Positions 3,875 through 64,000 of a stretch of 64,000 nt of DNA are shown here, in pieces (positions within the stretch are counted from its first letter, which is position 1; every line of letters starts with the position of its first letter). The notes beneath the pieces are model-generated. The model searched no databases and was not told where the DNA came from. It was given only the letters and a program-made list of their open reading frames with translations. This stretch comes from a virus. The stretch is taken from the IMG/VR virus record IMGVR_UViG_3300022752_000022, positions 1 through 64,000 of that record. One strand, written 5' to 3'. Position numbers and translations under genes: made by a program.

Positions 3875-4720
3875 ATGGCACGCAATCGGTATTTCAATCA
3901 ATATGGTACACCGAGTGAGCAAAACGTTTACGAAGATTTGATCATTGAAGCAATTAAAATTTACGGTGTTCCGGCATACTATCTTCCACGAACACATGTT
4001 AATTTAGATAAACTTTACGGTGAAGATGGTTCTATGTATTTTGATGATGCTATAGAAATTGAAATGTACATTAAAACTTTTGACGGTTTTCAAGGTCAGC
4101 TTGATTTTATATCAAAGTTCGGTCTTCAAGTCGATGAGCAGATTACATTTTCTTTGGTAAAGAAAAGATTTCAACAAGCAATGAAGCCATGCTTGATGAC
4201 AGAATATAATTACAATTTAATTTTAGAAGATAGTGGAGAAATTTTGTATCAGAATGAAATGCTTTCTGATACAGACGGAAGAAAAATTGATGATTATGAT
4301 TATTCTGGTATATATAGACCACGAGAAGGTGATCTCATATGGTTGCCTCTAGTTCAGTCTATGTACGAAATCAAATTTTGTGAGGATAACGAATACTTTT
4401 TTCAATTAGGAAAAACTTATACATACGAATTACGTTGCGATAGATTTGATTACTCTTCTGAAATTATTGATACAGATGTTTCTGAAATTGATGAAATAGA
4501 GGATTCTTACAGTCTTGCTACAAATATTCTTGATGAATTGCTTGATGAAGATGGTGACAAGATGCTTCTTGAAGATTCAAATACAATCATTCTTGAAGGT
4601 GATACATTTGAAAATAGGGCAAATACAGCAGATAACGATTTCATCACATCAGAGGTAAATGATGATGATATTCTAGATTTCAGTGAAGCGAATCCTTTTG
4701 CTTTGACAAAGGAGTGGTAA
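3875..4720 (+). CDS. gp14: Neck protein gp14
   Basis: EQNVYEDLIIEAIKIYG..YYLPR, RPREGDLIW, FFQLGK and terminal DFSEANPF motifs. Confidence 0.92.
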   Translation: MARNRYFNQYGTPSEQNVYEDLIIEAIKIYGVPAYYLPRTHVNLDKLYGEDGSMYFDDAIEIEMYIKTFDGFQGQLDFISKFGLQVDEQITFSLVKKRFQQAMKPCLMTEYNYNLILEDSGEILYQNEMLSDTDGRKIDDYDYSGIYRPREGDLIWLPLVQSMYEIKFCEDNEYFFQLGKTYTYELRCDRFDYSSEIIDTDVSEIDEIEDSYSLATNILDELLDEDGDKMLLEDSNTIILEGDTFENRANTADNDFITSEVNDDDILDFSEANPFALTKEW

Positions 4721-5461
4721 ATGATATTCGGGCATGATTTTTATCACGGCACACTCAGACGCTACATTATAATGTTTGGAAACATTTTCAATGAACTCCA
4801 AGTTGAAAGATATGATTCAAGCGGTAACGTTATACAAAAAGTAAATGTTCCAATTGAATACGGACCTAAACAAAAATTTATCCGAAGAGTTACAACAGAT
4901 CCTCAAATTGGCAGAGAACAATTTAGCACACAGTTGCCTAGACTAGGATTTGAAATGACTTCAATTTCATATGCGCCGGCGAGAAAATTAAACACAGGAT
5001 TTAAACTTAAGAAAAATTTAGATCCTGATTCCGTAAATTTTTCAAGCACTTACGTACCAGTTCCATATGACATGAGTTTTTCTTTAAGCGTACTTGTAAG
5101 AAACGCTGAAGATGGTACACAAATTGTTGAAAAAATTTTACCATTTTTCACACCAGATTTCACTGTGACAATGAAAGCGTTGCCAAGCATGTCATTAAAT
5201 CTTGATGTGCCGATAGAATTAGTGACAATTTCATCTGAAGATACTTACGAAGGTGATTTTGATTCACGTAGAGTGATTTCATGGAATCTAGATTTTGTCG
5301 TAAAAGGATATTTATTTGGTCCAATTACCGCAAATAAGTATATTGCGAATACAACAATTAACTTTAAAAACGACTCAAATAGTGTAACAGAACCAGCCCT
5401 TGTTGCATCTTCTGTTATAACTTCTAACTCAGATTTTGGATTTACAATCGTAACATCATGA
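4721..5461 (+). CDS. gp15: Tail sheath stabiliser/completion protein gp15
   Basis: FYHGTLRRYIIMFGNIFN, VPIEYGPKQKF, QIVEKILPFFTP motifs. Confidence 0.92.
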   Translation: MIFGHDFYHGTLRRYIIMFGNIFNELQVERYDSSGNVIQKVNVPIEYGPKQKFIRRVTTDPQIGREQFSTQLPRLGFEMTSISYAPARKLNTGFKLKKNLDPDSVNFSSTYVPVPYDMSFSLSVLVRNAEDGTQIVEKILPFFTPDFTVTMKALPSMSLNLDVPIELVTISSEDTYEGDFDSRRVISWNLDFVVKGYLFGPITANKYIANTTINFKNDSNSVTEPALVASSVITSNSDFGFTIVTS

Positions 5462-59430: not shown

Positions 59431-60066
59431 ATGACTGACGAAATGAAAGAAAAGTATATTCAAAAATATAAAGAAACATATTCGGTTTCTGAAATTTTAA
59501 GAACATTCAATGATGGAATTGGAAGAAAAAAAATCATAAATCTTTTAAAGGAAGAAGGTATATACGAGGGATTAAATGGACCAAATTATCTGAAAAAGAA
59601 AGTTGAAAATAATGAAAAAATAATGATGAAAAAATATGGTGTTATTAATTGGGGACAAACAAAGGATGGCGGTTACAAAAGCCAAAATAAAATACCATAT
59701 AAAAAAATATCTTATTTAAATGAAGAATATAAAGAATACAAAAATCAAGTTGAAAAAGAAACAAAACTTAATATAAAAAATATTGATTTACCTGAATATT
59801 GTTTTTACACAGGAATACAATTTGCAGATGTTGAGGGTCCCGTTAATCCGAATGATCCAAGAAAGAGAAGTGTTGATCATAAAATTCCAGTAATTATTTG
59901 TTATTTAAATGGCTTTTCTACAAATCAAGCTAGTGATTTAACTAACTTGATTTTCGTTTTGAAATATGTCAATTCAATTAAATCAAACACTGATCACGAG
60001 TCATTTTTGAAAATAACACATAAGATTAGGGAGGTATTTGTAAATGAGGGTTATAAGAGTAAATAA
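59431..60066 (+). mobile_element. Free-standing HNH-type homing endonuclease
   Basis: C-terminal CFYTG..RSVDHKIPV..DLTNLIFVLKYVNSIKSN (H-N-N beta-beta-alpha motif); KKYGVIN segment; AT-rich; sits between two intein halves. Confidence 0.78.
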
Positions 60067-61219
60067 ATTAGAAGAAAAATATACTCAGTATGATATTAGT
60101 ACGTCATCTAATAATTTTTATGTGCAAACAAATTCCGGTAGATATGTATTGATTCATAATTCTCCAGCCATTTTTGCTGGTCAAGATCCGTCAGACGGTC
60201 AATTCTTTGTTGCAAAGAAAGGCATCTTCAACAAAAATCCAAAACTCTACAAGACGAATGCTGAGATTGATGCAGACACTTCAGGTGATTTAGCAGACAA
60301 ACTCAAAGCATGTCTTCAATACTTGCCTGAAATTGGCATCAAAGGTGTCATCCAAGGCGACTTAATGTATACTCAAAGTGATCTAAAAAATGTAACAATT
60401 GATGGTGTAAAGTATACAACATTTCATCCAAATACCATTGTTTATGCGGTGCCTTATGATAGTGACATTGGAAGAACAATCCGCAATTCAAAAATGGGCA
60501 TTGTATGGCATACTAGATATGAAGGCGATACATTAGAAAATATGAAAGCAGTCTTCGGAACTGATATACTTGCTGGTATGAAAAAGTCTAGAAATGTCTG
60601 GTTTGACAATGCAGATTATAAAGATGTTTCAGGCAAAGCGTCCATGACAAAAGAGGAGACTGCTGAAGTGACAAAGGTGCTATCACAAGCAGGAAAAGTT
60701 TTCAATGCAATTGATGGCCGATTTTTAGATTCGCTTTCAGATTATCCAGGCTTCGGTGAAGAGTTGAATACAAGAATTAAAGCATTCAATAATTCTAAAA
60801 TTAAACAGCGCCAAAAAATTACAAATGTTCATAGTCATGTAACAGAAATGCTTGACGCACTCTTAGCACATTATCAGAGTGAGTTTGATAGCAAGAAAAA
60901 GCCTGATGCAAAGAAACGTGCTGAAGTCAAAGTCAATGCTATCAAAAGTATGATAAAATCAAAATACAAAGTTCAATTTGAACATATCTTTACGCTAATG
61001 AATTTGTTAGTTGACGCTAAAGATATGCTCAGTAAGAAATTAGATGAAGTAAAGAGTGTAAACACATTTTTATTAACCAAATCTGGATATCAAGTCACTG
61101 GTGTTGAGGGTTATGTCGCAATTGACAAATTGACTGGTGGTGCCGTGAAGATTGTAGATAGACTACAGTTTAGTTATGCTAATTTTTCTCCAGATGTAAT
61201 CAAAGGATGGGAGAGATAG
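60044..61219 (+). CDS. Split-intein C-half (39 aa, 60044-60160) fused to DUF6267-like C-part (352 aa)
   Basis: GGAGGT RBS; MRVIRVNKL..QYDISTSSNNFYV..VLIHN|SPAIFAGQDP..FFVAKKGIFNK..QGDLMY..FHPNTIVY..EGYV..VKIVDRLQFS. Confidence 0.88.
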   Translation: MRVIRVNKLEEKYTQYDISTSSNNFYVQTNSGRYVLIHNSPAIFAGQDPSDGQFFVAKKGIFNKNPKLYKTNAEIDADTSGDLADKLKACLQYLPEIGIKGVIQGDLMYTQSDLKNVTIDGVKYTTFHPNTIVYAVPYDSDIGRTIRNSKMGIVWHTRYEGDTLENMKAVFGTDILAGMKKSRNVWFDNADYKDVSGKASMTKEETAEVTKVLSQAGKVFNAIDGRFLDSLSDYPGFGEELNTRIKAFNNSKIKQRQKITNVHSHVTEMLDALLAHYQSEFDSKKKPDAKKRAEVKVNAIKSMIKSKYKVQFEHIFTLMNLLVDAKDMLSKKLDEVKSVNTFLLTKSGYQVTGVEGYVAIDKLTGGAVKIVDRLQFSYANFSPDVIKGWER

Positions 61220-62536: not shown

Positions 62537-63355
62537 ATGGCAGCATCAGAAGGCGTAGATTTAGAATGGGCAATTGTAGAATATTCTAGAATTAGATTAA
62601 ACAAACAAACGAAAACGACTAGAAATTATTCTTCAAAAATTGATACGCAGGCTAAAGAATGCGTAGATCATATATTTAAGAAAATGGGAAAGACGTTTGA
62701 TATATATCACTCAGACGAACAAGTGCCAGGTATAGGTTCAATCTACGCCAAACCTGAGCCTAAGACTGATATTGTAATATTTACTAAATCAAATAAATAT
62801 TTTGTATCAGTTAAAATGGAAGGTGGCATACAACTTGCATCCGGTCAGGGTGCATCAACAGCGGAACTTTTTGAGTCTGCTGCTGAATCATTAAAAAATG
62901 CAAATCAGAGAAAAGTTCTCACTTCTATAGTGAAAGAATTAAAAACTATGCCGACAAGATTACTCTCTACGAGCAATTTTGATAGAATTGTGTCTGAAGG
63001 TAATGAAAAAATCATAAAAGAATTTATAAAGAATGGTAAGATTATCCAAGATAAAAGTTACGAGTATTGGTTAGAAAATAATAAACCGCATCTTCTAGGC
63101 GCACTACTTAAATTTGTTAAAGAAAATGACGAATACTACAGCGCAATCATATACGAAGCGTTGACAGGTGAAAAAACTCTTAAAAGTTTTAAAGGCGCCG
63201 TTGCAAATTCTATTATTTCACCATCTGGATTTTATGAAATTGATGATGCATACGTTAAAAAATTGAAACCTAAGATTAAAATGGATTTACGAGCCAAATC
63301 TAGAGGTGGTATTTCAAGTATCGCATTTAGAATTGAAACCAGAGGAAGCGTTTAG
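62537..63355 (+). CDS. Putative PD-(D/E)xK-like nuclease
   Basis: SEGVDLEWAI..PEPKTDIVI..FVSVK..QLASG pattern (E..D..SxK variant). Confidence 0.5.
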   Translation: MAASEGVDLEWAIVEYSRIRLNKQTKTTRNYSSKIDTQAKECVDHIFKKMGKTFDIYHSDEQVPGIGSIYAKPEPKTDIVIFTKSNKYFVSVKMEGGIQLASGQGASTAELFESAAESLKNANQRKVLTSIVKELKTMPTRLLSTSNFDRIVSEGNEKIIKEFIKNGKIIQDKSYEYWLENNKPHLLGALLKFVKENDEYYSAIIYEALTGEKTLKSFKGAVANSIISPSGFYEIDDAYVKKLKPKIKMDLRAKSRGGISSIAFRIETRGSV

Positions 63356-63363
63356 TATAAATA
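63356..63363 (+). promoter_or_regulatory. T4-type late promoter
   Basis: TATAAATA. Confidence 0.8.
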
Positions 63364-63369
63364 AAACAT

Positions 63370-63416
63370 CAGTTAGGCTAAGGCAAACCTGAACGGATAA
63401 GTCTAAGGAAAACTCC
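63370..63416 (+). ncRNA. Candidate tandem 22-nt structured RNA leader
   Basis: CAGTTAGGCTAAGGCAAACCTG and GGATAAGTCTAAGGAAAACTCC, which differ mainly by compensatory changes. Confidence 0.55.
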
Positions 63417-63421
63417 AGAGA

Positions 63422-64000
63422 ATGAAAGATAACGTTATTATATCATTTGGTCGTATGAATCCCATGACAAATGGTCATGAGAAACTTGCAACCAAACTTC
63501 AATCAGTAGCAAAGCAGAAACACGGTGATGCTATGCTCTATCTATCACATTCCACAAATCCAAAGAAAGATCCGCTAGATTTTGACACAAAAGTCAAATT
63601 CGCTAAGAAGGCCTTTGGTCCAATGGTAAAAAACTCACCAGCGAGAACAATTTTAGAAGTTGCAAAAGAATTGACAGGTAAGTATAAGAATCTCATTGTC
63701 GTTGTAGGCAGCGACAGAGTTTCAGAATTTCAATCTTTACTCACAAAATATAACGGTAAAGATTATAAGTTTGAGAACATAGAAGTCGTATCAGCAGGAG
63801 AGCGTGATCCAGATGCAGAAGGTGTTACAGGAATGTCTGGTTCAAAAATGAGAGCGTTCGCTTCCGCTAACGATTTTGAAAAGTTTAAACAAGGTGTACC
63901 GTCCAAACTATCCGACGCTGACGCAAAAGCGTTATTTACAGCAGTGAGAAAAGGTATGAAACTAGACGAACAAGTAGACGAATCAATTGTAAGTTTCGCA
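63422..64000 (+). CDS. Cytidyltransferase-like (HIGH superfamily) nucleotidyltransferase, 3'-truncated by the window edge
   Basis: Hand translation MKDNVIISFGRMNPMTNGHEKL..VVVGSDRV..SAGERDPDAEGVTGMSGSKMR. Not in the ORF track. Confidence 0.88.
   Translation, partial: MKDNVIISFGRMNPMTNGHEKLATKLQSVAKQKHGDAMLYLSHSTNPKKDPLDFDTKVKFAKKAFGPMVKNSPARTILEVAKELTGKYKNLIVVVGSDRVSEFQSLLTKYNGKDYKFENIEVVSAGERDPDAEGVTGMSGSKMRAFASANDFEKFKQGVPSKLSDADAKALFTAVRKGMKLDEQVDESIVSFA

Follow-up and report, generated by a model that had tools for sequence, protein, structure and literature searches.

The leader of a large modular late gene in an uncultured T4-like phage forms a conserved, structured RNA element of two similar hairpins, which lies on the sense strand in the interval from a late promoter to the start codon, spans the Shine-Dalgarno (SD) sequence, and occurs once in the genome, at this gene only. 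We infer that the element regulates translation, and we propose, at a probability of about one half, that it acts as a gene-specific translational operator bound by a factor, which is probably a protein.

The virus record to which the window belongs is 149,598 bp long and carries terminal repeats; the window, i.e., the whole stretch of DNA that was analysed, covers its first 64 kb. This genome (G000) is that of an aquatic myophage of the T4-like kind, whose DNA resembles that of Melnitz, HTVC008M, and cyanomyophages only weakly. Crude ORF calling placed 132 of its 144 ORFs on the + strand, and exact copies of TATAAATA occur 18 times on the + strand and 3 times on the - strand of the whole genome (149.6 kb). 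The motifs AGGA, GGAG, and AAGG are enriched 6-10 fold 5' of the genome's ORFs, mostly at a spacing of 5-9 nt, indicating that the phage uses SD sequences.

Just upstream of the two hairpins, the -10-like element TATAAATA marks a T4-type late transcription unit (Table 1). The original prediction had located this promoter, two aligned 22-mers, and an ATG; the sequence letters bear out all of these positions, as well as the placement of TAAGGA inside unit 2 and the end of unit 2 at 5 nt before the ATG. Hand alignment of the two units likewise reproduced the nine predicted differences (positions 1, 2, 3, 5, 8, 15, 20, 21, and 22), eight of which form four compensatory pairs (1-22, 2-21, 3-20, and 8-15). 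Hairpin 1 contains the pairs C70-G91, A71-U90, G72-C89, G77-C84, and C78-G83 (last digits of the 633xx coordinates), with an internal loop of UUAG (63373-76) opposite AAAC (63385-88) and the tetraloop UAAG (63379-82). Hairpin 2 is built in the same way, from G95-C16, G96-C15, A97-U14, U02-A09, and C03-G08 (last digits of 633xx/634xx), with UAAG (63398-401) opposite AAAC (63410-13) and again a UAAG tetraloop (63404-07).

Table 1. Features of the leader and of the gene that follows it (positions in the window)
Feature	Position	Strand	Remark
T4-type late promoter TATAAATA	63356..63363	+	seen in sequence
Unit 1 CAGTTAGGCTAAGGCAAACCTG	63370-63391	+	22 nt, seen in sequence
Hairpin 1 (unit 1 plus closing U63369-A63392)	63369..63392	+	minimum free energy (MFE) structure, RNAalifold consensus, covariation
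Linker between hairpins	63393..63394	+	3 nt (AAC) counted from the end of unit 1
Hairpin 2 (unit 2 GGATAAGTCTAAGGAAAACTCC)	63395-63416	+	22 nt; RNAalifold, covariation
SD-like UAAGGA	63404..63409	+	inside loop and upper stem of hairpin 2
Candidate for the regulated gene	63422..64000, on to genome position 66328	+	968 aa

The two-hairpin fold is strongly conserved among relatives. All 45 IMG/VR loci that were retrieved by protein similarity (66-90% protein identity) carry the element, in each case in the order late promoter, unit 1, linker of 3-7 nt, unit 2, and ATG, and the tandem element was present in every close homologue found in IMG/VR and in metagenomes, giving ~90 distinct related sequences with a covarying element among the matches listed. 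When 28 distinct leaders were folded with RNAalifold without guidance, the consensus was the same two-hairpin fold. In the final model-based alignment of 77 distinct sequences, 98.9% of the pair cells are paired and 10 of the 11 pairs show double compensatory changes; as controls, none of 500 shuffles reached the observed pairing values, and slid registers paired at 25-52%. In unit 1, the basal pairs change between GC/AU/GU/UA/CG (0-23), CG/UA/AU (1-22), and AU/GC (2-21), and the upper pairs between GC/AU/UA (8-15) and CG/UA/UG/GC (9-14), while the corresponding sets in unit 2 are GC/AU/CG (1-22), GC/AU (2-21), AU/GC/UA (3-20), UA/GC/CG/AU/GU (8-15), and CG/UG/UA (9-14). G-U pairs occupy 22 cells of this alignment and occur on the sense strand only, which argues for an RNA rather than a DNA palindrome. 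Identity among members is ~80% for the leader, as compared with 35-50% for the protein. Conservation and covariation in homologous leaders had been named in advance as the test of the original prediction, which passes it clearly, and we conclude that the two-hairpin leader is a real conserved structured RNA element.

Alignments fitted to a model lean towards the model's own structure, and three pattern scans were designed so as not to create the covariation result themselves. With the internal loops fixed, the scan returned at least ~65 true members, including new stem variants. With the loop residues fixed and all stem positions left free, 97 matches were obtained in IMG/VR; of the 16 new loci among them, 3 were repeat artefacts and the other 13 were members in which all ten pairs form. 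The same stem-free scan of metagenomes yielded at least 37 further distinct members, while 59 rejected matches were tandem arrays or unrelated DNA without the promoter and gene context. Since stem-free retrieval still gave members with their pairs formed, the concern of model bias is answered. Conversely, when the stems were fixed and the loops left free, the internal loops U(U)WAG / ARNC were still found in 55 of 59 matches. We also noted a weak degenerate copy at L317:6744-6802 (20.8 bits), which stands behind TAAATA, has several broken pairs, and may be a decaying member. The loop-pattern matches from metagenomes in L367 (~5977, - strand), L303, L313, L314, and L329 are tandem 30-nt repeats, e.g., AAATTAGTCTACGGGAAACTTT; these arrays are unrelated to the leader, and some are CRISPR-type in look.

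Taken by itself, the window leader folds no better than its shuffles (MFE of -9.6 kcal/mol, z = -0.28). Yet a descriptor of the single hairpin matched just these two sites in the 149.6-kb genome, at 0.1 matches per shuffled genome, and the element therefore stands well beyond chance given this rarity together with the covarying conservation in relatives. A covariance model (R1) found a single match of 76 bits in the same genome, the next best scoring 8.5 bits; in ~958 kb of related contigs, each matching contig likewise held one copy.

Across members, the conserved core of the element is the internal loop. Each unit starts from a basal stem of 3 bp, which is lengthened to 4-7 bp in unit 1, and continues through a purine-rich 4x4 internal loop (5' U-(U)-W-A-G opposite 3' A-R-N-C, with A6, G7, A16, and C19 invariant) into a 2-bp upper stem that is capped by a tetraloop of the YNMG/UNCG type. 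Among 71 members, the tetraloops of unit 1 are UACG (27), UAAG (19), CAAG (8), CACG (7), and UAUG (7), and those of unit 2 are UAAG (48), CAAG (14), and UACG (8); the sequence pattern Y-N-(A/C)-G with C-G-type closing accounts for 61/71 loops in unit 1 and 71/71 in unit 2, and UGCG is UNCG-like. The linker varies from 3 to 13 nt in homologues, and the distance from the end of unit 2 to the ATG from 0 to 11 nt. A late-promoter octamer lies 6-13 nt 5' of unit 1 in 64 of the 71 distinct members, with exact TATAAATA in 48 and xxTAAATA variants in most others; when the range is widened to ≤26 nt, one of the two octamers precedes unit 1 in 68/71 descriptor matches. The loop of unit 2 supplies the SD as AAGG in 61/71 distinct members, at a spacing to the AUG of 12 nt in the window and of 7 nt where unit 2 abuts the ATG (17/71). 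In the external-SD variants L371, L343, L318, and L138, the loop lacks AAGG and a new SD starts 0-2 nt past hairpin 2.

Several further structures were considered and rejected on the variants seen. A pseudoknot between the UUAG of unit 1 and a CUAA farther 3', in the linker or in the loop of unit 2, is broken by CCAA and CUAC variants, loop-loop kissing through CUAAG does not hold with a loop position 12 that varies freely, and pairing of the SD GGA (13-15) with UCC (20-22) fails because position 15 covaries with 8 and not with 20. By comparison of consensus sequences, none of the K-turn, sarcin-ricin, UAA/GAN, and 11-nt receptor motifs fits UWAG / ARNC, and a CsrA-type site is out, as unit 1 lacks a GGA in most members.

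The element has apparently not been described so far. A cmscan of window positions 62800-64000 against Rfam 15 (4227 covariance models, among them those of mini-ykkC, nadA, pnuC, preQ1, and phage motifs; E ≤ 10) gave no match on 63364-63420, and nine diverse members gave none on the motif at E ≤ 1, such that the Infernal search proposed with the original prediction assigns the leader to no known family. Genomes of isolated phages in INPHARED contained no match to the element at E ≤ 1, and among the first 120 matches listed from bacterial and archaeal genomes all were noise save one phage-like contig (L247). In the distant homologues of the gene in HTVC008M, Melnitz, S-MbCM100, P-SSM3, and S-CRM01, the gene overlaps the upstream ORF and has neither a leader nor the motif; hence, the element is specific to the closer relatives and not to the whole protein family. 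Full-text literature searches turned up no description of the element, although it may figure without a name in a 2023 catalogue (PMC10690425), in which >10,000 candidate structured RNAs from IMG/VR are listed anonymously. With its compensatory changes, its sense-strand pairing, and its place in the 5' untranslated region (UTR), the element is classed among the structured cis-regulatory leader RNAs. In architecture, it comes nearest to guanidine-II, the thrS operator, and the phage coat-protein and gp43 operators, but it lacks the defining features of each of these.

What follows the leader is one modular late gene module with a variable head, to which all downstream ORFs examined belong or which they head. 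In the window, the 968-aa protein combines an N-terminal HIGH-type nucleotidyltransferase (NTase)-like domain, an Arg-rich module, DUF5824, and further modules, with the NTase assignment supported by Pfam CTP_transf_like (E = 0.0075), by PHROG 'cytidyltransferase' families, and by a weak match to the phosphopantetheine adenylyltransferase 3l92. Five arrangements were seen. First, an NTase of the type FGRMNPxTxGH or GGGFQPFHxGH heads the protein, with or without an N-terminal extension that resembles the T4 capsid-targeting sequence (e.g., MKTFKASLTEA). Second, in L285 (5775-9911), a DUF6267 ligase-like domain precedes the NTase and the Arg-rich and other modules in a fusion of 1379 aa. Third, in L290 (5494-9049), the leader is followed by a separate 329-aa KTDG protein without a Pfam match, and a polyprotein of >855 aa with a HIGH motif and the Arg-rich module begins 2 nt past that gene; its N-terminus, MLSFKEILDE, resembles the T4 capsid-targeting sequence. 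Fourth, in L091, L108, L146, L426, and L433, the NTase is a separate upstream gene, and promoter and motif stand before the Arg-rich remainder (in L146, NTase at 4552-5097, motif at 5133-5191, and Arg-rich ORF from 5192). Fifth, in L292:4097-4471 (- strand), a 125-aa ORF with NUMOD3 (Pfam E = 4.7e-5) directly follows the leader at a position that the 329-aa KTDG protein occupies in the sister contigs L290 and L295; this ORF is probably a homing-endonuclease-type insertion beside a conserved leader. The leader thus persists through domain reshuffling of its downstream gene, and as the head domain behind the motif changes and the NTase sometimes lies upstream, the element is not an NTase leader as such. 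Of the link to a nucleotidyltransferase drawn in the original prediction, the NTase-like nature of the window gene stands, while the generality of the link is lost to loci with the NTase upstream of the motif or a ligase-like protein first; the suggested nucleotide or NAD ligand is weakened in turn, since the motif also precedes ORFs without an NTase. By contrast, in every case where the genes behind the motif were examined, the same mRNA also encodes the Arg-rich module.

Some features of the surrounding genes deserve mention in their own right. Upstream in the window (60044-61219), a DUF6267 (KWDG ligase-like) ORF begins with an intein-C-like piece (...YVLIHN|SPAIFAGQDP), and the homologous protein in L285 is uninterrupted (ISVKWDGAPAVFAGQDP); the pair of observations fits a split-intein reading. 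Downstream of the 968-aa gene (G000 66326-69057, i.e., L048:6326-9057), an 88-aa ORF is followed by an 820-aa Lys-rich protein without a family match, and then by an NT5C-type 5'-nucleotidase (Pfam E = 8.5e-8).

The placement of the element over the SD and the start codon fits the translational control that had been suggested for it. In the mechanism that we propose, the late transcript would begin at hairpin 1 or a few nucleotides 5' of it, and a factor would recognise the two identical internal loops and stabilise the otherwise weak hairpin 2, which would in turn keep the 30S subunit off the SD and the AUG. The factor would most likely be a protein that binds as a dimer or in two copies, and could be a product of the same mRNA, perhaps acting via the Arg-rich module, which is a guess. 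A protein is favoured because the element is gene-specific and restricted to related phages, because two like sites suit a dimer, because a bound protein would still occlude the SD sterically in the external-SD variants, and because T4-type phages commonly use such controls. Precedents are found in the T4-type gp32, gp43, and RegA operators, the MS2 and PP7 coat-protein hairpins, the autoregulation of P22 scaffolding protein, and the two-hairpin thrS operator, which is bound by a dimer. The element may be an autogenous operator, for which its single-copy, gene-specific nature and the consistent presence of the Arg-rich module provide circumstantial support; the module could just as well serve in DNA binding or capsid targeting. 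Both the shuffling of modules and the N-termini that look like capsid-targeting sequences are consistent with a capsid-delivered polyprotein, and control of how much of a packaged protein is made is a classic case for autogenous regulation. Several observations speak against the proposed operator: the stems of both hairpins are short, the MFE fold of unit 2 in the window leader alone is an alternative GGA/UCC pairing instead of hairpin 2, occlusion of the SD is less obvious in the L012 group (loop UACG, AUG 13-15 nt from the GGA), distant relatives with the Arg-rich module have a plain late leader (an IMG/VR search with this module retrieved close relatives and three distant loci, the latter without the motif), and the conserved internal loops would be accounted for just as well by a small-molecule ligand as by a protein.

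Such a ligand is the core of one alternative, a very small tandem riboswitch in which the internal loops would bind an ion or a small molecule (e.g., a nucleotide, cofactor, or polyamine), stabilise hairpin 2, and so gate the SD. Invariant unpaired nucleotides flanked by covarying stems, the location in the 5' UTR with SD overlap, and two units joined by a variable linker, which recall guanidine-II and NAD+-I, would all suit this explanation, as would downstream enzymes that use nucleotides (the HIGH-type NTase and the KxDG ligase-like protein). We nevertheless consider it unlikely. As a rule, the riboswitch classes known so far occur widely across cellular genomes, whereas the present element was seen only in related uncultured phages and at one gene module, with a single phage-like contig among the first 120 matches listed from bacterial genomes and no Rfam family; moreover, it persists where the regulated ORF lacks an NTase, and base pairing does not sequester the SD in the external-SD variants. 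Its more specific form, a phage-only, ultra-compact class whose two 22-nt aptamers would respond to a metabolite or ion of the host and thereby time the late translation of capsid-packaged enzymes, is likewise doubtful.

Alternatively, the leader could be constitutive and work without an effector, with hairpin 1 guarding the 5' end of the late mRNA from 5'-end-dependent decay and hairpin 2 aiding translation by displaying the SD in its loop or by shortening the effective distance from SD to AUG. T4 late transcripts start 6 nt after the late promoter element, and the start so predicted after TATAAATA falls, both in the window and in L001-L003, exactly where hairpin 1 has its base; the SD in an exposed tetraloop agrees with this reading too, and T4 gene 38 sets a precedent for structure-assisted SD placement. 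A constitutive role leaves unexplained, however, why eight internal-loop nucleotides are near-invariant and the same in both hairpins while the stems drift, and why the element stands at only one of the genome's late genes; in addition, the distance from promoter to hairpin ranges from 6 to 26 nt. On balance, we regard a leader of this kind as improbable.

A signal for transcription or processing, i.e., put-like antitermination along an extended late operon or cleavage by a specific endoribonuclease, is more improbable by far: two stem-loops right after a promoter, as in HK022 put, and long downstream ORFs (968 and 820 aa) would match it, but the tight placement at 0-11 nt from the start codon with SD overlap is unneeded for antitermination, and the element has no sequence resemblance to any Rfam element. 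Finally, DNA-level protein-binding palindromes or a chance resemblance, to which the non-significant single-sequence fold might point, are already contradicted and have next to no likelihood, given covariation with changing base identity, sense-only G-U pairs, ~90 distinct conserved instances among the matches listed, and 0.1 matches expected per shuffled genome.

We know of no previous information on regulation in this uncultured aquatic phage clade. Post-transcriptional controls that act on single genes are few in T4-like phages, and the element extends their list by a well-supported family of structured RNAs. At ~50 nt, with a modular build of two equal hairpins and clean covariation, it is easily tested by synthesis. 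If it is bound by a protein, the two partners together would set how much is made of a large modular late protein with NTase and ligase-like heads; if it is bound by a small molecule, it would represent a new riboswitch class of minimal size that is confined to phages. Furthermore, the element can serve as a marker for its gene module in metagenomes, as each genome yields a single match to the covariance model, at 40-80 bits.

The element shares traits with several known systems. Like the guanidine-II riboswitch (mini-ykkC), it consists of two tiny, similar tandem hairpins in the 5' UTR, with a variable linker and the ribosome-binding site at or in the second. In mini-ykkC, however, a conserved ACGR tetraloop binds the ligand and the loops kiss, whereas here the tetraloops vary in a YNMG-like manner, the ACGR sequence is not shared by both hairpins, and the 4x4 internal loop is the conserved part; moreover, the neighbours examined encode NTase, DUF6267, and the Arg-rich polyprotein rather than guanidine detoxification or transport. 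The NAD+-I riboswitch (nadA motif) similarly has tandem, similar bulged-stem domains 5' of a gene related to a nucleotide cofactor, but its domains are larger, follow another consensus, and occur in Acidobacteria; the Rfam nadA model does not match here, and the present motif also precedes ORFs without an NTase. HK022 put resembles the element in its two cis-acting stem-loops with conserved unpaired residues right after a phage promoter, but acts on RNA polymerase and not on SD and AUG, and the two have no sequence similarity. The thrS operator of Escherichia coli likewise places two similar hairpins just 5' of the SD and AUG, where its own homodimeric product binds and represses by competing with the 30S subunit, an interaction that is only proposed here; the thrS hairpins imitate the anticodon arms of tRNA and have 7-nt loops, while recognition of the present element would run via the internal loops. 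The operators of T4 gp43, gp32, and RegA, of the MS2 and PP7 coat proteins, and of P22 scaffolding protein differ from it in sequence and shape, and its tandem duplication is unusual among them. Yet these, too, are small gene-specific RNA elements at a ribosome-binding site, bound by a phage protein, often the product of the same gene, that balances amounts in assembly.
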